Source: Acidobacteria bacterium RIFCSPLOWO2_12_FULL_67_14b (GTDB lineage: Bacteria; Acidobacteriota; Vicinamibacteria; Vicinamibacterales; UBA2999). Taken from it: a stretch of 64,000 nt of DNA. The first letter of the stretch is position 1; each line of letters starts with the position of its first letter. The translations under genes were made by a program, and so were the position numbers. This document shows positions 2,900-51,617 of the stretch, in pieces. The notes below the pieces were generated by a model, which was not told the origin of the DNA, ran no database searches, and saw only the letters and a list, made by a program, of their open reading frames with translations. The stretch covers positions 8,547-72,546 of the forward strand of contig MELE01000160.1 of NCBI GenBank assembly GCA_001768615.1, in the 5' to 3' direction.

Positions 2900-2922
2900 G
2901 GAGCCCGGAGCCCGGAGCCCGG
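2900..2922. repeat. Tandem heptamer array (GGAGCCC)x3
   Basis: Read directly. Fills most of the 40-nt gap between the vWA stop (2929) and the LonN start (2888). Confidence 0.85.
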
Positions 2923-2928
2923 CAAGTA

Positions 2929-4242
2929 TCAGTGAATGGTTTTGGTCTTCTTGTCCATGTAATCCATCAGGACGTACTCCCCGAGCGTGTACGGGGTCGT
3001 GAAGTACGCCTTGCCGCGGCACATCGCCGCCACGCGGCGGACGAAGGCCACCAGGTCGTAGTCGCGGGCGAGCATGAAGGTGTTGATCATGATCCCCGCC
3101 TTGGCGCAGGCCGACACTTCGGCCAGCGTCTCGCCGATCACGAACGGGTCGAGGCCGAATGGATTCTTGTAGATGCGGCCGTCGGGCTGGGTCAGCGCCG
3201 ACGGCTTGCCGTCGGTGATCATCACGATCTGCCGCATGTCCTTGCGCTGCCGCTCGAGGATGCGGCGGGCCACGCGCAGGCCTTCGCGCGTATTCGTATA
3301 GTACGGGCCGACGCGGACGCGGCCCAGCTCGCGGAGCGGGATCTCTTCGGCGCTGTCGTGGAACAGCACCGCGTGCAGGGTGTCGCCAGGGTACTGCGTG
3401 CGGATCAGGTGCGAGAGCGCCATGGCCACGCGCTTGGCCGGCGTGAAGCGGTCTTCGCCGTAGAGGATCATGCTGTGACTGCAGTCGAGCATCAGCACCG
3501 TTGCGCACGAGCTCTGGTACTCGCCCTGCGCGACCATCAGGTCGGGATAGTCGATGTCGATCCCACCATCCGGGCGGGTCTGAAGACCCGCCCCTACCAC
3601 ATCATGTGGGTCCGATCCTTTCGGTTCGGCCGCGGTCCGCTGCACGGCGTTGAGGATGGTGGCCGTGGCGTCGATGTTCAACGTGTCGCCGAACTCGTAC
3701 GGTTTCGGCGCGCCGCTGGCCTCGATGCCGGTGGAGAGGTCCCGAGTGTCGTGGCGGCCCGCGCTGCTGTGCCCGGACGACCCGAGCAGGTCGCGCAGCG
3801 CGCGATAGCCGAGAAAGTCCAGCGCCTTGTCGGTGACCTCGAACTTCACTTGCCCCGGTTCGCCGTCGCCGCCGCCACCCTGCGCGCGCCGCGCCTTTTC
3901 GCCTTCGAGGTCCGGCGGCGTGGTGATATAGCCGGACTCTTTCATGCGCTCGATGATCTGCTGGATCAACTGCTCGAGCTGATCGCGCATCTGTTGTTCG
4001 CTACCCTCGGCCTGATCGCCGAACAACTTCTCGAGCAGATCTTCCGGCAGCACGCCGCCGTTGAACAACGCCTCGAGAATGGCGTCGTGCAGCGCCTGCA
4101 TGGTGCGGTCGCTGTCGTCGCCGGTGTCGCGCGGGTTCCCGAAGCCGCTCGACAGCAGCAGGTCCGACAGCTTCGACATGAGGTCGTCCATGTCGAGCTC
4201 GTCGAGCAGGTTGGGCACGTATTTCGTGTATTTGTATTTCAT
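2929..4242 (-). CDS. von Willebrand factor A (vWA) domain protein with long N-terminal extension
   Basis: MIDAS motif in [10 protein letters not shown] followed by ITDGKPSAL. Partner of the upstream AAA+ gene. Carries an in-frame REP hairpin at 3572-3593. Confidence 0.8.
3572..3593. repeat. REP-like hairpin GGGCGGGTC-TGAA-GACCCGCCC inside the vWA CDS
   Basis: Perfect 9-bp stem and tetraloop. In frame, encoding GAGLQTRPD on the minus strand. Confidence 0.85.
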
Positions 4243-4250
4243 TGGTGTCA

Positions 4251-4309
4251 GCTACGGCTAAAGCCGTCGCTCTCCGAACGTTCGGAGGGCGATGGCTTCA
4301 GCCATCGCC
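4251..4309. repeat. Three consecutive palindromic hairpins in the AAA+/vWA intercistronic gap
   Basis: GCTACGGC-TAAA-GCCGTCGC (4251-4270), CTCCGAACGTTCGGAG (4272-4287) and GGCGATGGC-TTCA-GCCATCGCC (4288-4309). Confidence 0.85.
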
Positions 4310-4314
4310 TGAGA

Positions 4315-5838
4315 CTAGTTGTAATACTTCTTCTTCCGCCCACCGCCGCCTTCGTTCTCGTCCTCGTCGTCCGGTGTCAGGACGGGGGTGCGCGACGGTG
4401 GCGGCTGGGGCCGACGCACCGGCTCGGCGCCGTGGTAGCCGCGGTCGTCGCTCCGGCTGATCTTCTTCTGCGAATACAGCCCTTCCAGCACGAAGTCGAC
4501 GCCGGCCGCCAGCAGCGGGACCGGCGCGTCGGGCGCAATGCCCGCGCGCGACGCCAGTTCGACCAGGCCCTGCACGCGCCGCGCCTGTTCGACCAGCGAC
4601 TGGGCGGACGTCGTGTCCGACAGGCTGAGCGATCCGCCGAGGTCGAACCACTCGATCGCCGTCTTGAGGTCGGCGTCGGCGAAGTAGCCGTCGAACACCG
4701 TCGAAACCGCCGCGCGGACCAGATCGCGGGCCACCTGGTCGGCCCCCTTCAGCTCGCCTTCGTACTCGAGCTCGAACTTGCCCGTCATCGACGGCAGGGC
4801 GGCGTAGACGTCCGTGATCCGCGTCCCGACCACCGTTTCGCCGGCGGCGAGGGCGCGCCGCTCGGCGTTCGACACCGCGGTCTCGAGCACGCTGATCGGC
4901 ATGCGCTGGCTCACGCCCGATCGCTTGTCGACCTTGCGTTCGACGCGGGCCTGGAACGCGACCTCTTCGACCACTTCGCGGACGAACCGCGGCACCTCGA
5001 TCGCCCCGCCGCGGTTGACCCAGGCTTCCTGCGACGTGATCGCGATGGCATCCGACCGGCTGCTCATGTAGTGCGTGCGGATCTCCGCGCCGATGCGGTC
5101 CTTGAGCGGCGTGATGATCTTGCCGCGCGCCGTGTAGTCTTCCGGGTTCGCCGTGAAGACGATCATCACGTCGAGCGGCAGGCGGACGGGGTAGCCCTTG
5201 ATCTGGACGTCGCCCTCCTGGAGGATGTTGAAGAGGCCGACCTGGATCTTGCCGGCCAGGTCGGGCAGCTCGTTGATGGCGAAGATGCCGCGATTGGACC
5301 GCGGCAGCAGCCCGAAGTGCATCGACAGCTCGTTGCCGAGCTGCAGGCCGCCCTTCGCCGCCTTGATCGGATCGATGTCGCCGATCATGTCGGCAATCGT
5401 CACGTCCGGTGTCGCCAGCTTCTCGACGTAGCGCGCCTCGCGCGGACGCCACCGGATCGGCATCTGATCGCCTTCGGCCCTCACGCGCGCCTGGCCGAAC
5501 GCCGACAGCGGGGCGATCGGGTCGTCGTTGATCTCGCTGTCGGGCACCACCGGGATCCATTCGTCGAGCAGCGTCGTCAAGGCGCGGAGCAGGCGCGTCT
5601 TGGCCTGGCCGCGCAGCCCCAGCAGGATGAAGTGGTGGCGCGCGAGCACCGCGTTGACCAGTTGCGGCACGACCGTGTCGTCGTAGCCGATGATGCCGGG
5701 GAAGAGCGGGGCTTTCCGCCGCAGGCGCTCCGACAGGTTCTCGCGGACCTCATCGCGCACCGGCCGGCGGCGCACCTCGCCTCGCGCGATGGCCGCTTTC
5801 AGTTGTCCGAGGGTGTCAATGCGGGGCGAAGACGACAT
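4315..5838 (-). CDS. AAA+ ATPase, ChlI/MoxR-like (often auto-annotated magnesium chelatase or sigma-54 interaction domain)
   Basis: Walker A-like GLRGQAKT and Walker B-like IFAINELPDL. 507 aa with a basic/acidic tail. Sits directly upstream of the vWA gene on the same strand. Confidence 0.75.
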   Translation of the reverse strand: MSSSPRIDTLGQLKAAIARGEVRRRPVRDEVRENLSERLRRKAPLFPGIIGYDDTVVPQLVNAVLARHHFILLGLRGQAKTRLLRALTTLLDEWIPVVPDSEINDDPIAPLSAFGQARVRAEGDQMPIRWRPREARYVEKLATPDVTIADMIGDIDPIKAAKGGLQLGNELSMHFGLLPRSNRGIFAINELPDLAGKIQVGLFNILQEGDVQIKGYPVRLPLDVMIVFTANPEDYTARGKIITPLKDRIGAEIRTHYMSSRSDAIAITSQEAWVNRGGAIEVPRFVREVVEEVAFQARVERKVDKRSGVSQRMPISVLETAVSNAERRALAAGETVVGTRITDVYAALPSMTGKFELEYEGELKGADQVARDLVRAAVSTVFDGYFADADLKTAIEWFDLGGSLSLSDTTSAQSLVEQARRVQGLVELASRAGIAPDAPVPLLAAGVDFVLEGLYSQKKISRSDDRGYHGAEPVRRPQPPPSRTPVLTPDDEDENEGGGGRKKKYYN

Positions 5839-5847
5839 ATCCCTCTA

Positions 5848-6603: not shown

Positions 6604-6624
6604 GCGCACGAACCGCAGTATACG

Positions 6625-6686
6625 GTGGCGACAAACCTTTAGGTGTGTCGAGGTCGCGTGGCGACAAACCTTTAGGTTTGTCGAGG
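6625..6686. repeat. Direct duplication (33-bp period) of GTGGCGACAAACC-TTTA-GGTKTGTCGAGG hairpin element
   Basis: Two copies (6625-6653 and 6658-6686) lie in the divergent promoter region. The same GACAAACCTTTAGGTTTGTC core recurs at 58113. Confidence 0.9.
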
Positions 6687-6705
6687 CCCGTGCGAACATG
6701 GCACG

Positions 6706-7509
6706 GTGCTTCCCCCGGTGTTCCGGTCGCCGCGCCCGCTCGTCTTCGCGCATCGCGGCGGCGCGCGGCTCGCTCCCGAAAACACGATCCCGGCCTTCGA
6801 CAAAGGTATGTCGTTCGGCGCCGACGGCCTCGAGATTGACGTCCAGTTGTCCGCCGACGGCCTGGCCGTGGTGATCCACGACAAGACGCTCGAGCGGACC
6901 ACGGATCGCACCGGACCGGTGCACGCGCTGACCGCGGCCGAACTGTCGCGCGTCGATGCCGGCTATCGGTTCGAGCGCGACGGTGTGTTTCCATTCCGGG
7001 GCCAGGGCATCGGCATTACCACGCTCGACGTCGTGCTCGCGCGCTATCCGGCCGCCCGCGTGATCATCGAGATGAAGGGCGCCGAGCCCGAACTGGCCCG
7101 CGTGGTGGCGCGTGAAGTGCGCCGGGCCAGCGCGGTCGATCGCGTGTGCGTCGGCTCGTTCTACCCATCGTCGATCCTCGCCCTGCGAGCGGAGGCGCCC
7201 GACATCGTGACGAGCGCGTCGCAACCCGAGGCGCGCTGGACGTTGCATCGCTCGTGGGTACGCTGGCCGTGGATCGGCCCCCGCCCCTATGTGGCGTTCC
7301 AGGTTCCCGAATATGCGGGGCGCATGCGCGTCGTCTCGCCGGCGTTCGTGCGCCAGGTGCATCGCGAAGGGCAAGTGCTCCAGGTGTGGGTCGTCAACGA
7401 CCCGGCCGACGTGATCCGCCTGCTCGACTGGGGCGTCGACGGGGTGATTTCCGATCGCCCCGACATCGCCGTGCCGGTCAACGCCGCGTGGTATAAGAAA
7501 CGCCAATGA
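6706..7509 (+). CDS. Glycerophosphodiester phosphodiesterase (GDPD family)
   Basis: FAHRGG...ENT..AF......GADGLE.DV..S.DG..VV.HD is the canonical GDPD N-terminal signature. GTG start. Confidence 0.85.
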   Translation: MLPPVFRSPRPLVFAHRGGARLAPENTIPAFDKGMSFGADGLEIDVQLSADGLAVVIHDKTLERTTDRTGPVHALTAAELSRVDAGYRFERDGVFPFRGQGIGITTLDVVLARYPAARVIIEMKGAEPELARVVAREVRRASAVDRVCVGSFYPSSILALRAEAPDIVTSASQPEARWTLHRSWVRWPWIGPRPYVAFQVPEYAGRMRVVSPAFVRQVHREGQVLQVWVVNDPADVIRLLDWGVDGVISDRPDIAVPVNAAWYKKRQ

Positions 7510-8462
7510 CCCCGCCGACACTGAACGACGTCTACGTGGCGCGCGAGCGCATTTTGCCGCACGTGCCGCGGACGGCGCTGTTGCGTCATCCGCTGCTGGA
7601 TGCGGCGAGCGGGCTGTCGATCTGGGTGAAGCACGAGAACCACAACCCGACGTGCGCGTTCAAGGTCCGCGGCGGGCTGAACCTGGTGGGCTCGCTCACC
7701 GGGGCCGAGCGCGCGCGGGGCATCATGACGGCCAGCACGGGCAACCACGGCCAGTCGATCGGGATGGCCGCGCGCCTGCACGGCGTCGCCTGCACGGTGT
7801 TCGTGCCGGCGGGCAACAACCCGGAGAAGAACGCCGCCATGCGCGCCTACGGCGCCACCGTCGAGGAGGGCGGCCGCGACTTCGACGAGGCGCGCGAGCG
7901 CTGCGAGCGGCGCGCCGACGACACCGGCGCGCGCTACGTGCACTCCGCCAACGAGCCGATGTTGATCGCCGGGGTCGGCACCTACGCGCTCGAGGTGTTC
8001 GAGCAGATTCCGGATCCTGACGTGATCTACGTCCCGGTCGGCGGCGGCTCCGGCGCCTGCGGATTGATCACCGTGCGCAACGCCCTCGGCTCCAAGGCCC
8101 GCATCGTCGGCGTCGGCGCGGTCAAGGCGGATGCGGTCTTCCGCTCCTGGAAAGGCCCCGAGCGCGTCGTCGGCGAGTCGGCGGACACGTTGGCCGAAGG
8201 CATTGCGACCCGGGTCACGTTCGACCTGACGTTCGGGTTGCTCAAGCAGCACCTGGACGACTTCATCCTGCTGACCGAAGACGAGCTGGCCGAGGGCGTG
8301 CGCGTGGCGCTTCGCACGACGCACAACCTGGCCGAGGGCGCCGGTGCGGCGGCGATTGCGGCGGCGATCAAGCAGAAGGACGACCTGGCCGGGAAGCGCG
8401 TCGTCTGCATCATGAGCGGCGGCAACCTGGACGCCGCGAAACTCACCCGGATCCTGCGTTGA
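7506..8462 (+). CDS. PLP-dependent threonine/serine dehydratase family enzyme (no ACT domain)
   Basis: The PLP-lysine motif (FKVRGG), STGNHGQ and a GGGSG loop are present. ATGA overlap with the GDPD stop. Confidence 0.8.
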   Translation: MTPPTLNDVYVARERILPHVPRTALLRHPLLDAASGLSIWVKHENHNPTCAFKVRGGLNLVGSLTGAERARGIMTASTGNHGQSIGMAARLHGVACTVFVPAGNNPEKNAAMRAYGATVEEGGRDFDEARERCERRADDTGARYVHSANEPMLIAGVGTYALEVFEQIPDPDVIYVPVGGGSGACGLITVRNALGSKARIVGVGAVKADAVFRSWKGPERVVGESADTLAEGIATRVTFDLTFGLLKQHLDDFILLTEDELAEGVRVALRTTHNLAEGAGAAAIAAAIKQKDDLAGKRVVCIMSGGNLDAAKLTRILR

Positions 8463-8553
8463 CCTCCTGATCAACCTGCAGATCTCGACGGGAATCACCG
8501 CCATCCAGTTTTCGTCGACTTTCTACTGGGTCACGTACGGCGCCATCTGGCTG

Positions 8554-18924: not shown

Positions 18925-19152
18925 GACTCGGCGCTTCGCACCTCGTCGGAGTCGGCAGCTTCGCTGCCTCCTTGGACTTGCCGCTTCGCGGCTCGTGGGC
19001 TCGGAGGAACAACTCAGCGTCGTTGGTGAGTTACCCGGGGTTCTCGGTCCCACGAACGAAGTGAGTCCCAGGAGCGAGCGCCAGGTCTTCGACAAGGCGA
19101 GCGACTCCCACGACGAGCGAAGCGAGGAGTCCTACGAGCGCAGCGAGTCCTG
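18925..19152. repeat. Dispersed imperfect-palindrome element, copy E2
   Basis: Fills the convergent gap and supplies the UDG C-terminus (DSLRS stop). Multiple GGACTC..CGCTTCGC.. and GACTCCCACGACGAGCGAAGCGAG motifs. The 13-mer lies at 19053-19065. Confidence 0.75.
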
Positions 19153-19896
19153 TACGGTTCTCAGCACCTCGTCGTACATGGCGGGCGTGACCGTCCCTGT
19201 ATTCGTGTTCTGCCGCGAGGGATGATACAGGCCCACCAGGGTGCATGGGTGCATGGGTGCTTGGGTGCTCGGGTGCTTCGGTGCATGGGTGCTCAGGTGC
19301 GCGAGGCGGGCGATGGCGCCGTGGCCGAACGCCGGACGGGGACGCGGCAATGGCACGCCTTGTCCGGCCAGCATCTTGAGCCAGGCATCCCAGGCAATCT
19401 TGCCGAGCGCGATCACGACCTCGAGGCGGGGGAGCTGTGCCACTTCCGCCGCGAGATGATCGAGACACGTGTCGATCTCCTCGGGCAGCGGCTTGTTGGC
19501 CGGCGGCGCGCAGCGGACCGCGGCCGCAATGTACGCATCGGTCAGCACCAGGCCATCGTCGACGCGCTGCGACGTCGTGATGTTGGCAAAGCCGGCGCGA
19601 TGGAGCGCCGCCATCAGGAAGTCCCCGGAGGCGCCGATGCCGTCTCCGGTAAAGACCCGCCCCGTCCGGTTCGCGCCGTGCGCCGCCGGCGCCAGGCCGA
19701 CAATCAGGACCCGGGCCCGCGGATCGCCGAAGCCGGGCACCGGCTTCGCCCAGTAGACATCGCTCCGGTGCGCGGCCTTCTTCACGCGGCCCACTTCCTG
19801 GCAGTACGCCCGCAGGCGAGGGCAGCGGTCGCAGCTAATGATGGCGGTCCGAACGGCCGAGAGAGAGGGAGGACGGGTTCCGCGCCGTGGGCTCAT
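19132..19896 (-). CDS. Uracil-DNA glycosylase, family 4/5 type (UdgB-like, Fe-S cluster Cys ligands)
   Basis: CDRCPRL, GLAPAAHGANRTGRVFTGD and YHPSRQNTNTG motifs. Contains an in-frame insertion made of an 8-mer tandem array. ATG at 19896 preferred over TTG at 19911. Confidence 0.8.
   Translation of the reverse strand: MSPRRGTRPPSLSAVRTAIISCDRCPRLRAYCQEVGRVKKAAHRSDVYWAKPVPGFGDPRARVLIVGLAPAAHGANRTGRVFTGDGIGASGDFLMAALHRAGFANITTSQRVDDGLVLTDAYIAAAVRCAPPANKPLPEEIDTCLDHLAAEVAQLPRLEVVIALGKIAWDAWLKMLAGQGVPLPRPRPAFGHGAIARLAHLSTHAPKHPSTQAPMHPCTLVGLYHPSRQNTNTGTVTPAMYDEVLRTVQDSLRS
19239..19302. repeat. Tandem octamer array (GGGTGCWY)x8 inside the UDG coding sequence
   Basis: The units read gggtgcat, gggtgcat, gggtgctt, gggtgctc, gggtgctt, cggtgcat, gggtgctc, aggtgcgc. 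On the minus strand this encodes HLSTHAPKHPSTQAPMHP. Confidence 0.9.
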
Positions 19897-22693: not shown

Positions 22694-22727
22694 GGCAGAA
22701 GGCAGAAGGCAGAAGGCAGAATGGCAG
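22692..22727. repeat. Tandem heptamer array (AAGGCAG)x4 plus one variant unit containing the aceF ATG
   Basis: Starts inside the aceE TAA and ends in aceF codon 3. The whole intercistronic spacer is array. Confidence 0.95.
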
Positions 22728-24058: not shown

Positions 24059-24125
24059 GGCTTGAGGCTTGAGACTTGAGGCTTGAAAGGCCTCAACCCA
24101 AGTCCCAAGCCGCAAGCCCCAAGCC
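24059..24125. repeat. Heptamer array forming an imperfect palindrome: (GGCTTGA)x4 - AAGGCC - (CAAGYCS)x4-5
   Basis: Left-arm units and right-arm units are approximate reverse complements. Occupies the aceF-lpdA spacer up to the lpdA ATG (24127). Confidence 0.9.
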
Positions 24126-25560: not shown

Positions 25561-25628
25561 GGCGCCTATGGTGCCTACGGGTGCCTCTGGTGCCTAAGGC
25601 CTGGTGCCGGGTGCCACGGGTGCGCTCG
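25561..25628. repeat. Degenerate GGTGCC(T) array with 7-10 bp period
   Basis: Seven GGTGC cores directly after the lpdA TAA. The array continues into the last 9 codons of the convergent membrane-protein gene. Confidence 0.8.
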
Positions 25629-32891: not shown

Positions 32892-32922
32892 GCACCCAAG
32901 GCACCGTACGCACCGTACGCAC
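32891..32922. repeat. GCACC-core array with 8-9 bp period (reverse orientation of the GGTGC arrays)
   Basis: The sequence ggcacccaaggcaccgtacgcaccgtacgcac fills the 30-nt gap between two convergent stop codons. Confidence 0.8.
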
Positions 32923-34568
32923 TATTGCTTTTTGACGTTCCACGTGCCGCTGCAGGTTGCGCCGGTAATCGAGCAGCTCCACGATCCCAGCGCGCCGGCC
33001 CGGCCGGCGTCATCCGCCCAGAATCGCCCGCCCCATCGACACGTGGCGCCCGCCACGGCCGCGGCGCCGGAACTCACCTGGCCGGAAGCGGTGACCGTGC
33101 CCGATCCCGTTCCCCCGGACGTGATCGCAATGGTCCCGCTGCTCACGGTCATCGAGACCGCGCCCGGCGTCGCCACCGTTGCTTCGCCGGGACTGCTGCA
33201 CGACCCGTTCACGCTGCCCGAGTACAGGCCGTTGAACCTCGCGATCTCCGGCGGCGGCAGCGTGACCGACAGGATGGGCAGGATCTGCTGCGTGCCGGCG
33301 GCCGCGAGCCATCGCGCCGTCGAGCTGATCCCGAGTCCCTGGTAGGCGATCACCGGCCTCGTGTTCGCCGGCACGCGTTGCGGCGGCGCCGCCACCACCA
33401 CACCCTGCCGTGGGACCGTGGCCGACGGACCGTTCGGCGCATTGGCCGCCTGTTCGTACTCGGCGGCCAGCTGCACGGCGGCGTTGATCCCGCTCGTGAT
33501 CGGCAGTCCGAGGAACGTGAAGTTGTCGAGGATCGACAGGCCGAGGTCGGTGAACGTCGAACCAGCCGACGGCAGGGCAGCGCCGGTTGCGTACGCCGAC
33601 ACGTGCGAGGTGACCGGTCCCATCGCGAGGCCCAGGCCGGTCGCCGTCGCCTCGCTGACGATCCCCGCCGCGCCGATGCCGGCCGCCGCCTGGCCGCCGA
33701 GCACAGAGAGCGGCATGCCGTACGCGAGCGCGGCGCCCGTCTGGATCATCGCCGGCCCGCGCGTCGCCAGCGGGTCGTAATAGCCGTGGAGCGAGCAGAA
33801 CATCTGGTCGGCCTGAGGATCCCCGGTCGTCGGCGGACAGGTGACGGCGGCGGGGGCCGCCGCGGCGGCCCCCGCCACGGCCGACAGTTCCGCGGACACT
33901 TCCTTCGCGATCGCATACGCGATGCGATCCGACACGCGTAGCGCGTCGCTGGTGACGACGAACGGATCGCCGTTGGTCGTCGCCAGCGTCATCGTGCGGC
34001 CGGGGTCGCCCGCGATCGCCGTCGCGACATCGATCATCGCCTGCCACTCGGCATCGAGCGCGCGCGAGCGGTCGACGACGCGCGCGAACCGCGGGTTCGC
34101 GGCCAGCGCCGCCCGCAGGATGCCCTGCACGTCCCGGGTGAGGAGCAGCCACGCCTTCGTGAGCGCGCCCGGCGGCGCGCTGGTCGACGGCGCGGGCTCG
34201 ATCGTCAGGCCGCCGAGCACGTTCGAAGTGACCACCGCGGTGGCGGAGACCTGTACGACCTGCACCTCGGCCACGACCGGCACGTCGAACAACCGCGAGG
34301 TGGCCGTCTCGACCAGCGGCGGCACGACGATCTTCAGCGCGACCGCATTGGCGAAATAGGCCGGCACGCTCACGGCGACACCGCCGCGCGGGGCGACGAC
34401 CACGCTGATGGCGGCGTTGGCGGGGTCGAAACCGTTGCCGTTGACGACCAGCGAGCCGAGCGTGGCCACGGTCTGCCGGTCGAGGGCGGTGAGGGAGATC
34501 GAGCTTTGCGCGGCCACGGACACCGCGCACAGGGCCAGGACGATCGCGGAGGCGCCGGCGCGTCTCAT
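32922..34568 (-). CDS. Hypothetical secreted protein (Ala/Gly/Thr-rich, Cys-containing C-terminal module)
   Basis: Signal peptide (IVLALCAVSVAAQ). 548 aa with no motif I recognise. Confidence 0.5.
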   Translation of the reverse strand: MRRAGASAIVLALCAVSVAAQSSISLTALDRQTVATLGSLVVNGNGFDPANAAISVVVAPRGGVAVSVPAYFANAVALKIVVPPLVETATSRLFDVPVVAEVQVVQVSATAVVTSNVLGGLTIEPAPSTSAPPGALTKAWLLLTRDVQGILRAALAANPRFARVVDRSRALDAEWQAMIDVATAIAGDPGRTMTLATTNGDPFVVTSDALRVSDRIAYAIAKEVSAELSAVAGAAAAAPAAVTCPPTTGDPQADQMFCSLHGYYDPLATRGPAMIQTGAALAYGMPLSVLGGQAAAGIGAAGIVSEATATGLGLAMGPVTSHVSAYATGAALPSAGSTFTDLGLSILDNFTFLGLPITSGINAAVQLAAEYEQAANAPNGPSATVPRQGVVVAAPPQRVPANTRPVIAYQGLGISSTARWLAAAGTQQILPILSVTLPPPEIARFNGLYSGSVNGSCSSPGEATVATPGAVSMTVSSGTIAITSGGTGSGTVTASGQVSSGAAAVAGATCRWGGRFWADDAGRAGALGSWSCSITGATCSGTWNVKKQ

Positions 34569-34620
34569 GGCTGGGCCGACGCTAGGCTAAACCCCGGCGG
34601 CCCACAAAGCAAGCCAGCCG

Positions 34621-34676
34621 GAGTCAAGAGTGCAGAGTTGAGAGTTCAGAGTTGAGAGTTAAGAGCCAAGAGCGGC
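34621..34676. repeat. Tandem heptamer array (GAGTNNA)x8
   Basis: The units read gagtcaa, gagtgca, gagttga, gagttca, gagttga, gagttaa, gagccaa, gagcggc. Overlaps the lipA stop and its last codons. Confidence 0.9.
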
Positions 34677-35591
34677 GACGGCGGCGTCGGCCTGTTCGTG
34701 CGCGTGATACGAGCTGCGCACGAGCGGACCCGCCTCGACGTGCACGAAGCCCATGCCGAGGGCAATACGCTTGAGCTCGCGGAACTCGTCCGGGTGGTAG
34801 TAGCGCGTCATCACCGCGTGCCGGTCCGAGGGGCGCAGGTACTGGCCGAGCGTCAGGATCGAGACGCCCACCGCGCGCAGGTCCCTGAAGACCTCGACCA
34901 CTTCGTCGTGCTCTTCGCCCAGGCCCATCATCATGCCGGTCTTGGTCGGGATGGCCGGCGTGAACGCGCGCGCGCGGTCGAGCAGCTCGAGCGTGCGCCC
35001 GTACTTGCCGCCGGATCGCACGGCGCGATACAGGCGCGGCACCGTCTCGGTGTTGTGGTTGAGCACGTCGGGCCGGGCGCGCAGCACCGTCTCGAGCGGC
35101 CCGGCCTCGCCCTTGAAGTCGGGAATCAGCACCTCGACGCGGCAGTCAGGCAGCCGGCGCTTGATCTCGCGGATCGTCGCGGCGAAGCTGGCGGCCCCGC
35201 CGTCCGCCTGGTCGTCGCGATCTACTGAGGTGATCACCGCGTACTTCAGCGCCATCTTCTCGACGGCCTCACCGACCCGGCGCGGCTCGTCGATGTCGAG
35301 CGTCGCCGGCCGGCCGTGCGCGACGGCGCAGTAGGTGCAGGCCCGGGTGCAGACGTCGCCGAGGATCATGAAGGTGGCCGTGCCGTGATGCCAGCACTCG
35401 CCGATGTTGGGGCAGTGGGCATCCTCGCACACGGTGTTGAGCGCGAGGTCGCGCATGATGCCGCGCAGCCGCAGGTAGTTCTCCGACCCCGGCGCGCGGA
35501 CTTTCAGCCAGTCCGGCTTCGGTTCACGCCTGCCCGCCGTAGCCTCGGCGGAGGTGGGGGGGGTCACGAAATGCAGGCGCGATTCGACCAT
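34659..35591 (-). CDS. lipA: Lipoyl synthase
   Basis: CEDAHCPNIGECW auxiliary-cluster motif and CTRACTYC radical-SAM motif. ATG at 35591 preferred over the upstream alternative start. Confidence 0.9.
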   Translation of the reverse strand: MVESRLHFVTPPTSAEATAGRREPKPDWLKVRAPGSENYLRLRGIMRDLALNTVCEDAHCPNIGECWHHGTATFMILGDVCTRACTYCAVAHGRPATLDIDEPRRVGEAVEKMALKYAVITSVDRDDQADGGAASFAATIREIKRRLPDCRVEVLIPDFKGEAGPLETVLRARPDVLNHNTETVPRLYRAVRSGGKYGRTLELLDRARAFTPAIPTKTGMMMGLGEEHDEVVEVFRDLRAVGVSILTLGQYLRPSDRHAVMTRYYHPDEFRELKRIALGMGFVHVEAGPLVRSSYHAHEQADAAVAALGS

Positions 35592-35595
35592 CTTT

Positions 35596-35714
35596 GATCC
35601 AGTGTAACTGAAAAGGCACATCGAATGATCTAATGAGCTCGTGATCGGTTGATCAATCTGTCGAACTTATGAACTGTTGATCTGGTGATCGATCTTGTGA
35701 TCTAAGTGATGATC
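35596..35714. repeat. Degenerate NNTGATC array (9 GATC sites) left of the four-helix-bundle gene
   Basis: GATC counted at 35596, 35627, 35643, 35651, 35679, 35687, 35691, 35699 and 35711. The stretch is AT-richer than its surroundings. Confidence 0.85.
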
Positions 35715-35830
35715 GAGAACATTGCCATGCCTCTGACCGCGGGGTATGGCGATTCCTGCGACGCTTCCGAGCGCCAGTCGGCGAAATCCGCCCGATCTCT
35801 GACGGTACGACCGATGCAGCGGCTTGGGCC

Positions 35831-36229
35831 ATGGATAGAGAGGAACTCGAAGCAAGAACAAAAGCCTTTGCCGTCGCCGTCATCGCGGTTTGCGATTCCA
35901 TCCGCGCCCATCCCGAGGGGAAGACCGCGGCTAAACAGCTACTGGACTGTTCCTCGTCGGTCGGAGCAAACTATCGGGCAACGTCCCGCGCGCGATCGCG
36001 CGCGGAATGGATCGCCAAGTTGGGGACCGTCGTGGAAGAGGCCGACGAATCGGCCTACTGGCTGGAGGTGGCAGACCAAGCGGGGCTAGGTGACCGGACA
36101 ACGGTGAGGCGCCTGCTCATCGAAGCCCGTGAACTCCGCGCGATCTTCGCCAAGTCGTACGCGACCTCGCGCCGGAATCACCGAAGGGGCCGCTCAAAGG
36201 ATCAATCACAAGATAGATCAAAAGACTGA
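35831..36229 (+). CDS. Four-helix-bundle protein (23S rRNA intervening-sequence protein / Avd-like family)
   Basis: 132 aa. SSVGANYRATSRARSRAEWIAKLGTVVEEADESAYWLEV matches the remembered family core (..NY.EA......DF..KL.I...E..E..YWL). The C-terminal tail is encoded by the flanking tandem array. Confidence 0.8.
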   Translation: MDREELEARTKAFAVAVIAVCDSIRAHPEGKTAAKQLLDCSSSVGANYRATSRARSRAEWIAKLGTVVEEADESAYWLEVADQAGLGDRTTVRRLLIEARELRAIFAKSYATSRRNHRRGRSKDQSQDRSKD

Positions 36230-36291
36230 TCAGTAGATCCCAAGATCAACAGCTCAATAGACAGATCACCAGATCGCCAGATCACGAGATC
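36200..36291. repeat. Degenerate AGATCANN array (9 GATC sites) right of and overlapping the 3' end of the four-helix-bundle gene
   Basis: GATC at 36200, 36216, 36228, 36236, 36244, 36264, 36272, 36280 and 36288. The last four units are regular 8-mers. This is the reverse complement of the left array motif. Confidence 0.85.
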
Positions 36292-36296
36292 AAAAG

Positions 36297-36992
36297 ATGC
36301 CAACATTAGCAATAACCTGGTTAGGCCATTCGTCCTTCCGCCTGAGAACGCCGGGTGGGAAAGAGATTCTCTTCGATCCCTGGTATACGGGCAATCCCGT
36401 GTTCGTCGAGGCCTCGCGGCCGAAGGCGGCGGACCTCATCCTCGTGTCGCACGGTCACAGCGATCACATCACCGACGCCGCCGCGATGGCGAAGGCGACC
36501 GGGGCCACCGTCGTCGGCATCTGGGAGGTGGCGACCTGGCTCGGATCGAAAGGCGTTCAGCACATCGAGCCGATGAACAAGGGCGGGACGATTACGGTCA
36601 AGGGCCTCCGCATCACCATGACCGACGCGCGTCACAGCAGCAGCTTCGACGACAACGGTTTCGTCTACCTGGGCGAGCCGGCAGGATTTGTCGTGAAGCT
36701 GGAGAACGGCCAAACGATCTACTTCGCCGGCGACACGTCGCTGTTTGGCGACATGAAGCTCGTCGGCGAGCTCTACAAGCCCGACATCGCGTTCCTGCCG
36801 ATCGGCGATCGGTTTACCATGGGGCCCGACACCGCCGCCATGGCGGCGCAGTGGCTCGGCGTCAAGCAGGTGGTGCCGATGCACTACGGCACGTTCCCGC
36901 TCCTCACCGGCACGCCGGAGCTGCTCGAGCAACAGCTGGCGGGGACGGGGATCGAGGTACTGAAGCTGAAGCCCGGTGAAACGGCTCAGTAG
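36297..36992 (+). CDS. MBL-fold metal-dependent hydrolase (UPF0173-like)
   Basis: ITWLGHSSF...LVSHGHSDH metallo-beta-lactamase motif. 231 aa. Confidence 0.8.
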   Translation: MPTLAITWLGHSSFRLRTPGGKEILFDPWYTGNPVFVEASRPKAADLILVSHGHSDHITDAAAMAKATGATVVGIWEVATWLGSKGVQHIEPMNKGGTITVKGLRITMTDARHSSSFDDNGFVYLGEPAGFVVKLENGQTIYFAGDTSLFGDMKLVGELYKPDIAFLPIGDRFTMGPDTAAMAAQWLGVKQVVPMHYGTFPLLTGTPELLEQQLAGTGIEVLKLKPGETAQ

Positions 36993-39347: not shown

Positions 39348-40774
39348 TGATTTCCAGCGAACGTATCCCCAACAACGTCGACCTGGCCGGCAACAAGCGC
39401 CTGCAGCGGGCGCTCGAGCACTGGCAGCCGGCCTATCTCGATTGGTGGCGCGACATGGGGCCGCCCGGGTTTCAGGACAGCCACCGCGTCTACCTGCGCA
39501 CCGCGGTGAGCGTCGACGCGGCGGGCTGGGCGCACTTCGACTTCGTGAAGCTCCCCGAGTACCGCTGGGGCATCTTCCTCGCGGAGCCGACGCCGGATCG
39601 GCGGATCGGCTTCGGCGACTTCAAGGGCCAGCCCGTGTGGCACGAGGTGCCCGGCGAGTTCCGCAACCAGCTCCGCCGCCTGATCGTGATCCAGGGCGAC
39701 ACCGAGCCGGCCAGCGTCGAGCAGCAGCGGTCGCTCGGCGCGCACTGTCCGAGCCTGTACGACCTGCGCAACCTGTTTCAGGTGAACGTCGAGGAAGGCC
39801 GCCACCTCTGGGCCATGGTCTACCTGCTGCACTCGTACTTCGGGCGCGACGGCCGCGAAGAGGCCGAGGCCCTGCTCGAGCGGCGCAGCGGCAACGACGA
39901 CACGCCGCGTATGCTCGAGGCCTTCAACGAGCCCATCGACACCTGGCTCGACTTCTTCGCGTTCACGATGTTCACCGATCGCGACGGCAAGTCGCAGTTG
40001 CTGTCGCTGTCGGAAAGCTCGCTCGATCCGCTGGCGCGGACCACGCGCTTCATGCTGACCGAAGAGGCACACCACATGTTCGTCGGCGAAACCGGGATCG
40101 CCCGCATTCTCGAACGCACCTGCCAGCTGCTGCGCGAGTCGGGCTTCTCGGGCGACGTGCGCCGGTCCGGCGGCATCGACCTGCCGCTGGTCCAGAAGTT
40201 CGTCAACTTCTGGTTCAGCCAGAGCCTCGATCTCCATGGCAGCGAAGTGTCCAGCAACGCGGCCGCCTACTTCTCGAACGGCCTCAAGGGCCGCGCCGAG
40301 GAGGACAAGTTCGGTGACGACCACGTGCTGGCGGCGAACATGTACATGCTCGACCTGCTGGACGCGAGCGGCCGCATCACCAGGGAGGAAGTGCCGATGC
40401 GCAACGCGCTGAACGAGGTGCTTCGCGACTGGTATGTCGGCGACTGCCAGGCCGGCGTCGATCGCTGGAACAAGCGCGTGCTCGAGGCGCACGGCATGTC
40501 GGATCGGATCGTCCTGCCGTCCCGGAAGTTCAACCGCCGCGTCGGGGTGTATGCGGGCAGGCACTTCGACCCGATGGGCAACATCCTGACGCCCGAGGAA
40601 TGGGAGCGCCAGAAGCCCGAGTGGCTGCCGACCGCCGCCGACAAGGCGTTCCTGCACAGCCTGCAGGTCACGCCGGTGTACAAGCCGGGGCAGTTCGCCA
40701 ACTACATTGCGCCGCCCCAGCGTGGCATCAACCGGCAGCCGATCGACTTCGAGTACGTGCGGACCGAGGGCTAA
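39347..40774 (+). CDS. boxB: Benzoyl-CoA 2,3-epoxidase, diiron oxygenase subunit B
   Basis: 475 aa. N-terminus SERIPNNVDL..NKRLQRALEHWQP.YLDWW and YLRTAVSVD match BoxB as remembered. ATG overlaps the boxC TAA. Confidence 0.85.
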   Translation: MISSERIPNNVDLAGNKRLQRALEHWQPAYLDWWRDMGPPGFQDSHRVYLRTAVSVDAAGWAHFDFVKLPEYRWGIFLAEPTPDRRIGFGDFKGQPVWHEVPGEFRNQLRRLIVIQGDTEPASVEQQRSLGAHCPSLYDLRNLFQVNVEEGRHLWAMVYLLHSYFGRDGREEAEALLERRSGNDDTPRMLEAFNEPIDTWLDFFAFTMFTDRDGKSQLLSLSESSLDPLARTTRFMLTEEAHHMFVGETGIARILERTCQLLRESGFSGDVRRSGGIDLPLVQKFVNFWFSQSLDLHGSEVSSNAAAYFSNGLKGRAEEDKFGDDHVLAANMYMLDLLDASGRITREEVPMRNALNEVLRDWYVGDCQAGVDRWNKRVLEAHGMSDRIVLPSRKFNRRVGVYAGRHFDPMGNILTPEEWERQKPEWLPTAADKAFLHSLQVTPVYKPGQFANYIAPPQRGINRQPIDFEYVRTEG

Positions 40775-40809
40775 GAAGGCAGAAGGCAGAAGGCAGAAGG
40801 CAGAAGGCT
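40775..40809. repeat. Tandem heptamer array (GAAGGCA)x5, same unit as at 22692
   Basis: Fills the entire 33-nt gap between the boxB TAA (40774) and the convergent stop at 40808-40810. Confidence 0.95.
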
Positions 40810-41236
40810 ACTGGATGACGATCCGGCCCTGGAGGCCGGTATTCTCCGGCAGGTTGTGATCGTGGAAGCCGCAGGTCCGCACGGTGTTCAGGTTGCCCGT
40901 CGTGCGCTGCTGGCCCGGCGTGAGGAAGCCCACCTGGTTGATCTCGGGGCACTGCGTGTGCTCCGGATGCGGATCCGACGACATGTCGTGCGCCAGCGTG
41001 TGGTTGTTGATGAACGTGACCCGTCCGCCGGGCGCGACCGTGACCGACGACGGGCTCACCGTGCCGTTGGCGCCGATCGTGATCGTGGCCGTCGACGGGT
41101 TGCCGCCCGTGCCGGGCGTTGTCGGCGTCGTCGGCGTCGTGGGTGTTGTCGGCGTCGAACCGCCGCCGCCGCACGCCGCCACCGTGGCCGCCGCCACCAC
41201 CGCCGCCGCCACCGCCATCCACACCGATTGCCTCAT
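40808..41236 (-). CDS. Lipoprotein with cupredoxin-like beta-sandwich domain (His/Cys-rich)
   Basis: Lipobox VAAC, a (TPT)n linker, then VTVAPGGRVTFINNHTLAHDM...CGFHDH. Confidence 0.55.
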   Translation of the reverse strand: MRQSVWMAVAAAVVAAATVAACGGGGSTPTTPTTPTTPTTPGTGGNPSTATITIGANGTVSPSSVTVAPGGRVTFINNHTLAHDMSSDPHPEHTQCPEINQVGFLTPGQQRTTGNLNTVRTCGFHDHNLPENTGLQGRIVIQ

Positions 41237-44030: not shown

Positions 44031-44032
44031 AG

Positions 44033-46565: not shown

Positions 46566-47858
46566 TTAGAACCAATAGAGCACCTGCGCGGTCATCATCG
46601 TGTCGCCCCGCACGCGCCCGCCGTCGCGGTGATTGCGCTGCCAGGCGCCTTTGATCTGGATGTTGCGCATGATCGAGTAGCCGCCGCCGGCCTCGATCCG
46701 CCACACATTCGAGTCCCAGGTCTGGGGCCCCCGCGTCGTCGAGAGGGTGCTGAAGTCGAGGCGATCCGCCCGGGCCGCGAGGTAGGCGCCCGGCGCGACC
46801 TTATAGCGGCCCTCGAGCAGGAACGAGGTGGCCACCAGGGGCCCCTCGATCATCGGCGCCGCGATCGCCGGCATCGCCCACGACGAGCGGATGGCCTCGC
46901 CCCGGACGAGCACGCGACCGGCCGAGAACTCCGCGTCGCCGCCCACCGCGGTCTGGTTCGGCCGCTCGGCCGTGCGCGCATCGAACGATCGATCGAGCCA
47001 CGAGCCGCGCGCGGCCGACACGCCGAATGCCAGGGCCGGCGTCGGCCGCGTGACGACGCGGCCGGCAAGCTGGCGGCCGCCGTTGTTGTCCCGCAGCCGC
47101 GGATCCGAGAGCGAGCCCACGCTGATCGCGCCGGTCCACTCGAAGACGCCGTTCACGCCGTGCGCCTGGATGCCGGTGTCCCAGCGTGACGTGTTGACCA
47201 TCGGGAGGCCCGGACCCGGCTCGGTGTTGCCGATGGGGAAGTTCGACAGCCATCCGCGCCCGCGCATTCGCACGAGGTCGTCGGCGTTGGCCGGCAGCGC
47301 ATCGGAGCGGATCGACAGCAGGTACTGATACGCGAGGGGTTGCCCCACCAGCAGGTTGCCGCTGCCGTACGCCGTGCGCGTCATCGAGCCGAACGTCGGC
47401 GGGATGCGGCCGGCCTGCAGATCGAATCGCCGGCCGGGCCACGGACGGATCCGCAGGAACAAGCCATAGGCCTCGAGCACATGACCCTGGTCGAGCCGCA
47501 CCTCGCCGAGCACCTGCACGTGATCGTTCGCGCGCACTTCGACCGAGACCCCCAGCCGGAGATTGCGGATGGCGCTGTATTCGTAGCTGGTGTAGTTGAA
47601 GAAACCGGGATCGTCCGGCGCGAGCGTGGCCGCAACTTCGGCGCCCAGCACGAAGTGTCCGCCGGCGAGGGAAATTGGTTGTTCGGGCAGCAGCTGCGCC
47701 GCGGCCTCGCGCGCCGGGCCGAGCGCGAGGATCCCGCCCAGCACCGAGCACCTCAGCACCGAGCACCTCAGCACCGAGCACCTCAGCACCGAGCACCTCA
47801 GCACCGAGCACCTCAGCACCGAGCACCCAAGCACCCGAGCACCCAAGCACCTAAGCAC
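46566..47858 (-). CDS. Outer-membrane beta-barrel (porin-like) protein, N-terminus built from a tandem repeat
   Basis: C-terminal ...QVLYWF terminus, alternating strands and a cleavage-like AAAQ. The first roughly 40 codons (VLRCS x5) are the 15-bp array, so the true start is uncertain. Confidence 0.6.
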   Translation of the reverse strand: MLRCLGARVLGCSVLRCSVLRCSVLRCSVLRCSVLRCSVLGGILALGPAREAAAQLLPEQPISLAGGHFVLGAEVAATLAPDDPGFFNYTSYEYSAIRNLRLGVSVEVRANDHVQVLGEVRLDQGHVLEAYGLFLRIRPWPGRRFDLQAGRIPPTFGSMTRTAYGSGNLLVGQPLAYQYLLSIRSDALPANADDLVRMRGRGWLSNFPIGNTEPGPGLPMVNTSRWDTGIQAHGVNGVFEWTGAISVGSLSDPRLRDNNGGRQLAGRVVTRPTPALAFGVSAARGSWLDRSFDARTAERPNQTAVGGDAEFSAGRVLVRGEAIRSSWAMPAIAAPMIEGPLVATSFLLEGRYKVAPGAYLAARADRLDFSTLSTTRGPQTWDSNVWRIEAGGGYSIMRNIQIKGAWQRNHRDGGRVRGDTMMTAQVLYWF

Positions 47859-47861
47859 CCC
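47739..47861. repeat. Tandem array: (CAGCACCGAGCACCT)x5-6 followed by NNAGCACC 7-8-mers (16 AGCACC cores)
   Basis: Read directly. Lies in the divergent region between the porin-like gene and the DUF4097 gene and forms the annotated porin N-terminus. Confidence 0.95.
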
Positions 47862-47866
47862 AAAAG

Positions 47867-47881
47867 TATAATGCCCGCGTG
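47867..47881 (+). promoter_or_regulatory. -10 box TATAAT placed 6 nt before the GTG start (leaderless-type arrangement)
   Basis: The sequence is TATAATgcccgcGTG with no SD. Lies directly after the tandem array. Confidence 0.4.

Positions 47882-48597: not shown

Positions 48598-48601
<4 letters not shown>
47879..48601 (+). CDS. DUF4097-like beta-strand-repeat protein (putative adhesin fold)
   Basis: Signal peptide. Repeated G.V.L....G.L.L.T..G.V segments. The GTG start lies 6 nt after a TATAAT box. Confidence 0.6.
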
Positions 48602-50730
<2,129 letters not shown>

Positions 50731-50760
50731 GGCGGAGTGCCATCGTATGCCTGTAACGCC

Positions 50761-50790
50761 TTGACAGGGAAGGGGGCCAACCGGTACAGT
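50761..50790 (+). promoter_or_regulatory. Candidate sigma-70 promoter TTGACA-N18-TACAGT upstream of the iclR-like gene
   Basis: Perfect -35 hexamer, 18-nt spacer and a 4/6 match at -10. Lies about 28 nt before the ATG at 50818. Confidence 0.35.
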
Positions 50791-50817
50791 CAGAAATCTG
50801 AAACGTCGTTCCGTATA

Positions 50818-51579
50818 ATGGAATCAGCCTCGTCCTCAGCACGCGTCCAGGCCGCCGCCACTTCCATCGACAAGGCCCTCAAGGTCTGCGAAGTCCTCAG
50901 CGGCGTGCCTCGCGGGATGAGCCTGTCGGATCTGGCCCGTGCCGTCCGCCAGCCGGCCTCCACCGTCCATCGCCTCCTCGCGGTCCTCAAGCGGCGCGGC
51001 TACGTTCGCAAAGATGACGAGTCGCAGCGCTACGGCCTGACCTTGAAGATGCTCGACCTGAGTTTCCGTTCGCTCGGGCAATCGGAATTACGTCTGCACG
51101 CGTACCCGATCATGCGCGAGTACGTCCTGCGCACGCCGTACCGCGGGTTCATCGCGATTCCGTCGAGTGGCGAGGTCACCTACGTGTGGAGCACCGGCCC
51201 GGACGAGGTGGCGATGCGGACCGTCTACGGGAAGGAAATGCCGGGGCACTGCGCGATCTATTTTTCGCCGCGCCAAGCCACGCGCCGCCTCAGTTGCCTG
51301 CGGCTCGCCACGTCCGCGGAATTGAGCAAGCCCGAGGCCACCGTCATTCGCCTCGGGCCGCCGCCGATGGAACCCGATGCGCTCCAGCGCCTGTTCTGCA
51401 CCTGCGCGCCGGTGCGCGATTACACGGGGCAGGAAGTGGCCCGCGTCGGCGTGTTCGGGCACGGCGCCGACGATGGTCCCATCCTGACGGAACATCACCG
51501 CGGCGCGTGGGACCTGGCGCGCCGCATCTCGATGCGCCTCGGCCACGTGGCAGCCAGCGCGCTCGAAAGCACGGCATAA
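50818..51579 (+). CDS. IclR family transcriptional regulator
   Basis: N-terminal wHTH SIDKALKVCEVLSG...MSLSDLARAVRQPASTVHRLLAVLKRRGYV. ATG 50818 chosen, though GTG 50737 is possible. Confidence 0.75.
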   Translation: MESASSSARVQAAATSIDKALKVCEVLSGVPRGMSLSDLARAVRQPASTVHRLLAVLKRRGYVRKDDESQRYGLTLKMLDLSFRSLGQSELRLHAYPIMREYVLRTPYRGFIAIPSSGEVTYVWSTGPDEVAMRTVYGKEMPGHCAIYFSPRQATRRLSCLRLATSAELSKPEATVIRLGPPPMEPDALQRLFCTCAPVRDYTGQEVARVGVFGHGADDGPILTEHHRGAWDLARRISMRLGHVAASALESTA

Positions 51580-51582
51580 CCC

Positions 51583-51617
51583 TGAACTCTGAACTTTGAA
51601 CTCTGAACTCTTAACTA
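51583..51617. repeat. Tandem heptamer array (TGAACTC)x4-5, reverse complement of the GAGTTCA unit at 34621
   Basis: Starts 4 nt after the iclR TAA and lies upstream of fdxA. Confidence 0.9.

Follow-up and report, generated by a model that had tools for sequence, protein, structure and literature searches.

Cyanobacteria have been known to carry heptamer tandem arrays since about 1990, and the short tandemly repeated repetitive (STRR) heptamers of that group were reportedly described by Mazel in 1990. Here we analyze arrays of this kind in a 64,000-nucleotide stretch of the genome of Acidobacteria bacterium RIFCSPLOWO2_12_FULL_67_14b (contig MELE01000160.1; hereafter, the window), in which twelve arrays with units of mostly 7 or 8 nt lie largely at or between the ends of genes. 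We conclude that these arrays belong to a known but unexplained class, the heptamer-dominated, STRR-like long simple sequence repeats (SSRs), in a phylum that is new for it. As the best explanation we tentatively favor, with somewhat less than even confidence, a foldback-type selfish element whose arrays are resized by slippage.

The class includes the GGGAATC arrays of Xanthomonas. They are 89-93% intergenic, have mean distances of 28 nt to the upstream open reading frame (ORF) and 160 nt to the downstream one, fall between convergent genes in 16% and between divergent genes in 7-8% of cases, and form 70-75 inverted pairs; their modal length is 4 units, both strands carry them, their length differs between species, and no function was found (Rehm et al. 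2015, PMC4692102). The same paper cites Mrazek 2007 for an over-representation of heptamers among the long SSRs of many bacteria, and also refers to three heptanucleotides that are tandemly repeated in Calothrix sp. PCC7601. TAACTGA direct repeats occur in Beggiatoaceae, cyanobacteria and Bacteroidetes (MacGregor 2015, PMC4679880). An earlier note on this DNA, made by reading the letters alone, had stated that no described element class has the properties of the window arrays. That statement was wrong, because Rehm et al. describe the same anatomy in Xanthomonas; the STRR-class heptamers of Calothrix and the TAACTGA repeats of Beggiatoaceae are further described cases.

The window arrays show the marks of the long-SSR class: an excess of tandem repeats, a predominance of heptamers, a bias to non-coding DNA, proximity to stop codons, rarity between divergent genes and whole-unit variation between strains. 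Like Xanthomonas GGGAATC and Nostoc GGGGAYT, they are tandem heptamers of about four units, about 90% intergenic, near the end of the upstream ORF, situated mainly between co-directional genes, present on both strands and partly arranged in inverted pairs. They differ from those repeats in comprising at least six unit families rather than one G-rich family, in that most units are without G-quadruplex potential, in the commonness of octamers, in hugging stop codons at 0-7 nt, and in their acidobacterial host. With the cyanobacterial STRR they share a small number of heptamer families per genome and a dispersal of arrays in non-coding DNA, and on the cyanobacterial plasmids that we examined heptamer arrays flank four-helix-bundle (4HB) genes, as octamer arrays do at a cassette in the window; the phylum and the units are different, however, and the window has 68% G+C, so that the resemblance is in kind only. 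The Beggiatoaceae repeats are likewise intergenic heptamer arrays (of 2-6 copies) beside many unrelated genes, with a patchy phylogenetic spread, but they lie a few nucleotides upstream of start codons, are almost all direct and have one unit that carries stop triplets, whereas the window arrays hug stop codons and a stop triplet occurs in 5 of 25 units in our sample.

Several other repeat classes were considered and rejected. The repetitive extragenic palindromes and bacterial interspersed mosaic elements (REP/BIME; REPIN) of enterobacteria and pseudomonads are extragenic imperfect palindromes of 20-40 nt, found at 3' gene ends and in operons and linked to RAYT, a Y1 transposase. They resemble the arrays in their single, inverted-pair and clustered forms and their species-specific sequence families, but the units here are 7-8 nt long and non-palindromic, and no transposase is among the Pfam calls of the window. 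The mycobacterial interspersed repetitive units (MIRU) have units of 40-100 bp with small ORFs for translational coupling, and overlap the flanking stop and start codons in operon gaps; only this position is alike, and a period of 7-8 cannot keep a reading frame. In a CRISPR array, repeats of 24-48 nt alternate with unique spacers, but the copies here are contiguous 7-8-mers. Finally, a phase-variation contingency locus, at which an SSR in a promoter or 5' coding region turns a gene (typically for a surface component) on or off, was rejected on the grounds that the genes whose stop codons the arrays follow have housekeeping functions (pyruvate dehydrogenase, lipA, ferredoxin).

Reality, placement and period of the arrays

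We located arrays with Tandem Repeats Finder (TRF), counting as strong those loci of period 7 or 8 with three or more copies and a score of 40 or more. TRF recovered all twelve of the arrays listed in the earlier note. The window holds 9 such loci, whereas 50 dinucleotide-shuffled versions of it averaged 0.04 and never had more than 1. Judged by the relatives of its aceF protein, the window belongs to the Vicinamibacterales (Acidobacteriota). Unit families recur within it: AAGGCAG and AACTCTG twice each, GATC-type units three times and GGTGC-type units four to five times.

An artefact of short-read metagenome assembly or sequencing, a possibility that the earlier note had itself named, might be suspected from a scaffold that breaks inside the longest array (L030) and from a shorter version of that array in another assembly, which could be a collapse. 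However, several metagenome assemblies made independently, from strains of 99.5-99.96% identity, contain the arrays base for base, and related arrays occupy orthologous sites in more than 20 other Vicinamibacterales genomes, some of them on contigs of 0.6-1.4 Mb. One relative (L001), for example, has an array of the same family at the site of our 25561 array and, at the 32891 site, an inverted pair of that site's family. Arrays in finished plasmid records also look the same. We therefore regard an artefact as extremely improbable.

For the placement of the arrays, the gene map of positions 1-53544 is independent of our own gene calling, consisting of the calls attached to public contigs of near-identical strains. 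A stop codon is overlapped by the array, or lies at most 6 nt from it, in 9 of the 12 cases, and arrays occupy 11 of the 32 intergenic gaps of at least 15 nt. Five short gaps (22694-22720, 25561-25593, 32892-32921, 36230-36296 and 40775-40807) consist entirely of array, which bears out the earlier observation that several arrays fill whole gaps. Three of these gaps are convergent. At 25561-25620, a degenerate array with the core GGTGCC and variable spacers of 1-4 nt fills the gap between lpdA and the gene at 25594-26661(-) and enters the C-terminus of the latter; a GCACC(GTAC) array at 32891-32922 fills the gap between an ankyrin gene and the gene at 32922-34568(-); and AGAAGGC x5.0 at 40774-40808 reaches from stop codon to stop codon. 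A GGAGCCC x3.3 array at 2900-2922, by TRF and the gene calls, lies between two minus-strand genes, 6 nt from the stop at 2929 and 11 nt from the start at 2888. We also noted a tandem repeat of 20-nt period (TCTTCAGACCCGCCGTTCCA x2.9) at 53545-53603, 14 nt after the stop at 53531; it fills the rest of a convergent gap to 53567 and enters the start of an ORF at 53568-54044(-), thus keeping the position rule of the arrays with a different period.

We extended the placement analysis to the window together with 25 related loci, in all 447 kb of Vicinamibacterales DNA with 381 genes and 88% coding, for which genes were called by a home-made codon-usage caller that recovered 46 of 47 trusted stops and was validated on the window only. 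In co-directional gaps with an array, the array starts at most 7 nt from the upstream stop in 30 of 40 cases; uniform placement in the same 40 gaps predicts 19.3 ± 2.0, and a value of 30 was never attained in 10,000 simulations. Arrays are nearer to the stop than to the start in 28 of the 40 gaps. Per kb of gap, array density is 2.09 in co-directional, 1.86 in convergent and 0.41 in divergent gaps, a five-fold depletion in the last. These data indicate that the enrichment near stop codons proposed in the earlier note is real, and its gene-terminus rule holds both for 9 of the 12 window arrays and in this placement test. The rule does not hold for the arrays read at 19239, 35596 and 47739. The first is an in-frame insertion inside a UDG domain, and the other two stand at gene starts in divergent gaps. 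The 47739-47860 array, which has an AGCACC core in alternating 7- and 8-nt units (AGCACC plus 1-2 nt; 15-mer x7.5), covers the divergent region and the called N-terminus of the gene at 46566-47852(-).

The constancy of the period, which had also been claimed, was confirmed in the 447 kb, where arrays with three copies or more are nearly confined to periods 7, 8 and 9. With the thresholds given above for copies and score, TRF found 53 arrays of period 7 (46 intergenic), 24 of period 8 (21 intergenic) and 23 of period 9 (13 intergenic), and none of period 5, two of period 6 and one each of periods 10 and 11. Thus, 67 of the 77 arrays with period 7 or 8 lie between genes, in DNA of which 88% is coding. 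A count of runs of at least 3 copies that is free of TRF thresholds gave 43 at period 7, 22 at period 8 and 8 at period 9 (1, 2 and 0 in the shuffle), compared with 5 at period 5, 10 at period 6 and none at periods 10-11 (11 and 1 in the shuffle for periods 5 and 6). The copy-number distribution has a shoulder at 4-5 copies, which is not decisive.

Some arrays are coding. The GGGTGCWY octamer array at 19239-19300(-), with 6.9-7.7 copies, lies in frame within the UDG gene 19132-19896(-), in the loop that separates the GHG motif from YHPS, and the Pfam UDG domain (residues 54-247) spans it. The occupant of this loop depends on the lineage: the GGGTGC octamer in the window and in L003, a 9-mer of GGTGC type in L004 and L020, AACTCTG in L001, and no array in five other relatives. 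Separately, period-9 arrays, some of them inverted pairs, lie in the linker after the lipoyl domain of aceF in four relatives (L008 10232-10365, L014 10239-10402, L020 10393-10529 and L024 10228-10352); a period divisible by three thus allows repeats of the array type to persist within genes as well.

Insertions, inverted pairs and the four-helix-bundle gene

Comparison with relatives shows that the arrays are insertions into junctions at which genes otherwise abut. By TRF, an AAGGCAG x5.1 array at 22692-22728(+) occupies the entire aceE-aceF gap, running from the TAA of aceE into the ATGGCAG that begins aceF. In array-free relatives this gap measures 0-13 nt, and the aceF-lpdA gap 2-22 nt (e.g., taaGCgtg, taaatg, taaCCgtg). 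Some relatives have an AAGGCAA array in the aceE-aceF gap, as in the window, and in other lineages at least five unrelated array families are found there, with at least four in the aceF-lpdA gap. When the array block is subtracted from the gap length, a median of 17.5 nt remains, compared with 28 nt for array-free gaps.

The aceF-lpdA gap of the window is filled by an inverted pair, GGCTTGA x4 (24059-24086) and CCCAAGC x4.1 (24097-24125), again as located by TRF, and relatives have other inverted pairs at this site, or the short gap without an array. The pair at 24059-24125 folds into a segmented hairpin of 6-bp helices split by single mismatches (-36 kcal/mol, z = -5.6). We folded 12 inverted-pair elements and obtained z values of -4.3 to -8.5 for 10 of them and of -3.1 and -1.8 for the other two; a helix of 6-7 bp followed by one mismatch is the recurrent pattern. 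Across many lineages, the two arms of a pair have matching units.

A larger structure of the same build lies between lipA and a metallo-beta-lactamase-fold gene. Here a degenerate octamer array (NNNTGATC, 35628-35715, +) forms the left arm, upstream of a 4HB gene at 35831-36229(+), and a second octamer array (AGATCNNN, 36194-36298, +), its reverse complement, forms the right arm, which encodes the C-terminal tail (the last 12 or so codons) of the 4HB gene and reaches the start of the metallo-beta-lactamase-fold gene at 36297. The arms pair with each other in the minimum-free-energy fold of 35590-36300 (z = -8.2). What had been recorded as two separate arrays, at 35596 and 36200, is thus one cassette with two inverted arms around one gene. 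The encoded protein is an Avd-like "23S rRNA intervening sequence protein" (Pfam PF05635, E = 1.7e-9; NCBIfam TIGR02436, E = 3.7e-17; PDB 2RLD, E = 1.4e-9), and PF05635 proteins resemble Avd of diversity-generating retroelements (PMC10053308). Five relatives have orthologues of the cassette with both gene and arrays.

The association of 4HB genes with arrays extends well beyond this cassette. All 12 of the 4HB genes that we examined on plasmids have flanking arrays, and in 10 cases the two sides are clearly in inverted orientation; the plasmids are from Cyanobacteria, Chloroflexota, Bacteroidota and Spirochaetota (Nostoc, Aulosira, Dolichospermum, Planktothrix, Gloeocapsa, Pseudanabaena, Chlorohelix, Bernardetia and Treponema). 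Three further array-flanked 4HB genes lie on metagenome contigs. In addition, 120 metagenome loci picked only for their AAGGCAG arrays contain 5-6 4HB genes, each with AAGGCAG upstream and CTGCCTT downstream. In Xanthomonas, repeat #15 in the supplement of Rehm et al. overlaps the start codon of XCC0516, the PF05635 protein whose structure is PDB 2GSC. In total, about 20 independent 4HB genes from several phyla were examined, and all are flanked by arrays; the gene family comprises at least 8,000 clusters.

Controls support the specificity of this association. In four plasmid stretches totaling 168 kb, 7 of 17 arrays lie at most 161 nt from the single 4HB gene, where about 0.28 would be expected, and in two of the four the only array is the one beside the 4HB gene. 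The junction between the DUF1156 and HEPN genes carries a 4HB cassette in Gloeocapsa and Chlorohelix; in Burkholderia and Meiothermus it is 5-6 nt long and array-free, and XisH-XisI or Uma2 inserts at the same junction in Tolypothrix and Nostoc flagelliforme are without arrays. This junction of DUF1156 with a Swt1-family HEPN gene, part of a defense-type operon, is a hotspot for small inserted genes (plasmids L163, L166 and L181-L184), and among its inserts heptamer arrays accompany only the 4HB insert. The searchable literature yielded no published link between 4HB genes and heptamer arrays or STRR, which is not proof of novelty. We rejected the idea that the 4HB protein lineage dictates the unit, as AAGGCAG flanks unrelated 4HB proteins and proteins that are 75% identical have different units.

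The architecture of the cassette is that of a 23S rRNA intervening sequence (IVS), in which a long stem of terminal inverted repeats surrounds a PF05635 ORF. In Coxiella, the 23S rRNA IVS with its S23p ORF has a variable number of GACAGAT heptamers upstream of the ORF, and RNase III cuts the stem of such intervening sequences (PMC4990558). The element at 35628-36298 differs in that it lies outside a 23S rRNA gene and its arms are themselves tandem arrays; no match to rRNA or to any other Rfam family was found in the window.

The arrays could instead be functional cis-elements: multi-site platforms for a multimeric single-strand nucleic-acid-binding protein, with the pentameric 4HB protein, S1 and cold-shock protein as candidate binders, by which the relative expression of cistrons would be set, the hairpins serving as intercistronic RNA processing or stability elements. 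Conserved cores with variable spacers (GGTGC+N, GATC+NNN) fit such a role, and so do the commonness of 4-5 copies next to the five chains each of PDB 2RLD and 2GSC, the persistence of an AAGGCAR array at aceE-aceF across species whose aceF is only 75-89% identical, and the location of arrays in transcribed gaps together with their depletion from divergent ones. Moreover, binding of S1, Csp or CsrA has been proposed for the TAACTGA repeats (MacGregor, PMC4679880), and the IVS stem that RNase III cuts is an analogous structure (PMC4990558). On this account, however, it is hard to see why relatives have the same junctions without any array, why different families replace one another at one site, or what regulatory part the arrays in the UDG coding loop would play; in addition, the unit sequence is independent of the 4HB protein lineage, the window has no Rfam match, the single arrays follow no orientation rule, and hairpin stability shows no asymmetry between sense and antisense strands. 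We consider a cis-regulatory function unlikely.

The strand comparisons gave the following results. Selection for a sense-strand RNA hairpin was rejected, the sense strand being the more stable in 8 cases and the antisense in 11, which is not significant. Relative to transcription, single arrays have more G than C in 18 cases versus 7 and are purine-rich in 17 versus 8, an unconvincing difference in which orthologues are counted repeatedly. Provision of stop triplets in all three frames through a period of 7 or 8 was rejected as well, as only 5 of 25 single arrays have a stop triplet in the sense strand. Finally, as the earlier note had held, the arrays are not Rho-independent terminators: none of the 7 intrinsic-terminator-like sites found between 19000 and 38000 (8.8 in shuffles) coincides with an array, and direct arrays cannot fold. 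The genome may make little use of canonical terminators.

Slippage, allele replacement and shared units

Near-identical strains (99.5-99.96% identity) differ in array length by whole units, a polymorphism for which the earlier note had proposed to look. The 2900 array has one extra unit (+7 nt) in strain L035, the 40774 array lacks one unit (-7 nt) in L032, and the 47739 array is four 15-mers shorter (-60 nt) in L031 and is the site of the L030 scaffold break. Arrays account for 4 of the 7 indel events among these strains, and they show 13.7 mismatches per kb, as opposed to 6.2 in the remaining intergenic DNA and 1.44 in coding sequence. Replication slippage thus operates on the arrays.

Length also differs within a repetitive gene of another type: gene 40808-41236(-), which encodes a low-complexity protein, contains in-frame 9-nt and 3-nt repeats (GGCGTCGTC, CCG) at 41115-41216, and strain L034 differs there by 3 nt. 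Elsewhere, the PALP-domain gene at 7506-8462 is a single 318-aa ORF in the window and is split into products of 83 and 232 aa in the gene calls of L035 and L036, which are other assemblies of the same strain group.

A change of another kind has occurred at the 3' end of lipA. In the window, the stop codon of lipA (34659-34661) lies within a GAGTNNA array at 34621-34672(-), whose unit, taken on the minus strand, is that of the AACTCTG family. Strain L034 has an unrelated 87-nt sequence in place of positions 34594 (approximately) to 34672, between flanks that are 100% identical; the replacement holds a 9-bp hairpin (CGCGGAGCT/AGCTCCGCG) and alters the last three residues of lipA from LGS to MNR.

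Units are shared between unrelated loci of one genome. In the window, the arrays at 22692 and 40774 have the identical unit, and the unit of the lipA array recurs at 51578-51616(+), where TGAACTC/AACTCTG x5.6 runs from the stop codon of an IclR gene to 13 nt before a ferredoxin start. No common flank sequence was found outside the array in either of these pairs of loci, and the arrays therefore have no MITE-like body. In the larger sample there are 24 pairs of identical canonical units at period 7 (about 2 under the null) and 23 at period 8 (0.2-0.3). Within a genome, the same unit turns up in different gaps in 3 of 40 cases at period 7 (P = 5e-4) and in 4 of 11 at period 8 (P = 7e-10). The unit dialect is likewise genome-specific: between the aceF-lpdA hairpin and the 4HB cassette, cosine similarity is 0.36 within genomes versus 0.22 between genomes, and 5 of 120 permutations were as high. 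The two loci have a dialect in common, for instance, in L001 (AGATCAAC) and in L026 (CAAATCAC).

Three observations concern the metagenome contigs chosen for AAGGCAG x3 (L037-L156). Exact AAGGCAG arrays occur there at G+C contents from 35% to 69%, that is, in very different organisms. They mostly adjoin other heptamer arrays, and an AAGTAA tail ends arrays in L046, L103 and L116, all from one sample, as well as in L071 and L087, from other samples.

Another possibility is that the arrays are plain long SSRs, born by chance duplication of 7-8 nt in place and lengthened or shortened by slippage. Under this explanation, the period would reflect the polymerase footprint and a mismatch repair that ignores loops of at least 4 nt, and the position would reflect purifying selection against arrays wherever they do damage; in a compact genome, the places left would be those directly after stop codons. 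The unit-step polymorphism, a variability about 10 times that of coding DNA, the occurrence of both orientations without strong strand bias and the resemblance of the AAGGCAG unit to the adjacent aceF start all agree with such an origin. The literature supplies both arguments on the period (PMC4692102, PMC4060949), the second paper noting that mismatch repair deals poorly with loops of at least 4 nt (Huang and Mrazek). Chance duplication in place does not account, however, for identical units at unrelated loci of one genome, genome-specific dialects, matched inverted pairs in many lineages, the same families within the UDG loop, the allele replacement between identical flanks at lipA, or the 4HB association in all cases examined, with control inserts at the same junction array-free. 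We judge this explanation possible but rather improbable. Accordingly, the earlier statement that ordinary microsatellite slippage is insufficient stands for slippage alone, because of the tuning to periods 7 and 8, the limited unit vocabulary, the inverted pairs and the link to the 4HB gene; it has to be qualified in that slippage does act, as the unit-step differences between strains demonstrate.

Origin of the arrays

A foldback-type element that is resized by slippage seems to us to account best for these features. In eukaryotes, Foldback (FB) transposons have long terminal inverted repeats composed of short tandem repeats, with or without a coding center, and many copies are "empty"; the resemblance to them is architectural only, without homology. 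We propose that the basic unit of the bacterial element would be a long hairpin, both arms of which are tandem arrays of a 7-8-nt unit, and that its complete form would enclose a 4HB gene in the manner of a 23S rRNA intervening sequence. This form would occur only sometimes; hairpins that lack the gene and arrays reduced to one arm, both frequent, would then be its derivatives or remnants. The element would enter junctions where genes otherwise abut, and a stem that occupies the whole space from a stop codon to a start codon could rejoin both. It would be retained only where it does little harm, that is, behind stop codons, where two genes converge, and in protein loops or linkers that tolerate it, and promoters would exclude it from divergent gaps; on this proposal, the position rule would arise from tolerance. 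Slippage would subsequently change copy number by whole units and homogenize the units, and exchange between the arrays of one genome would maintain a small, genome-specific vocabulary. The 4HB protein may contribute to these events, and the element may be mobile.

Several points weigh against this proposal. We found no transposase, target-site duplication or transposition event, and of the approximately 12 loci with arrays in the window only one has a 4HB gene. Most of these loci, moreover, consist of one direct array and are not hairpins. The relatives were all sampled around aceF, orthologous arrays are not independent, and the plasmid sample is mostly cyanobacterial. Because the unit is not tied to the 4HB protein lineage, a host process could make or homogenize the arrays, with the cassette merely among them. 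Finally, the similarity between the AAGGCAG unit at aceF and ATGGCAG, the ancestral start of that gene, agrees with an origin by slippage in place.

Taken further, the foldback proposal would make the heptamer and octamer arrays of the STRR type, of Xanthomonas and of the window the arms or debris of a single widespread, undescribed element with the order array, 4HB gene, inverted array. The 23S rRNA IVS would be a special case of it; entry into junctions would be precise, the stem re-joining the flanks, and the 4HB pentamer may act on arrays of about five units. We consider this broader unification improbable.

Near-identical strains differ in length chiefly at the arrays, and short-read assemblies break at them. 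The window adds a new phylum to the known range of heptamer arrays, together with three testable points: insertion into junctions of 0-13 nt, a vocabulary particular to each genome, and bracketing of 4HB genes. The origin and function of heptamer arrays, of 23S rRNA intervening sequences and of the 4HB family have all been long-standing puzzles. If the link to the 4HB gene holds genome-wide, two old puzzles would become one tractable question.

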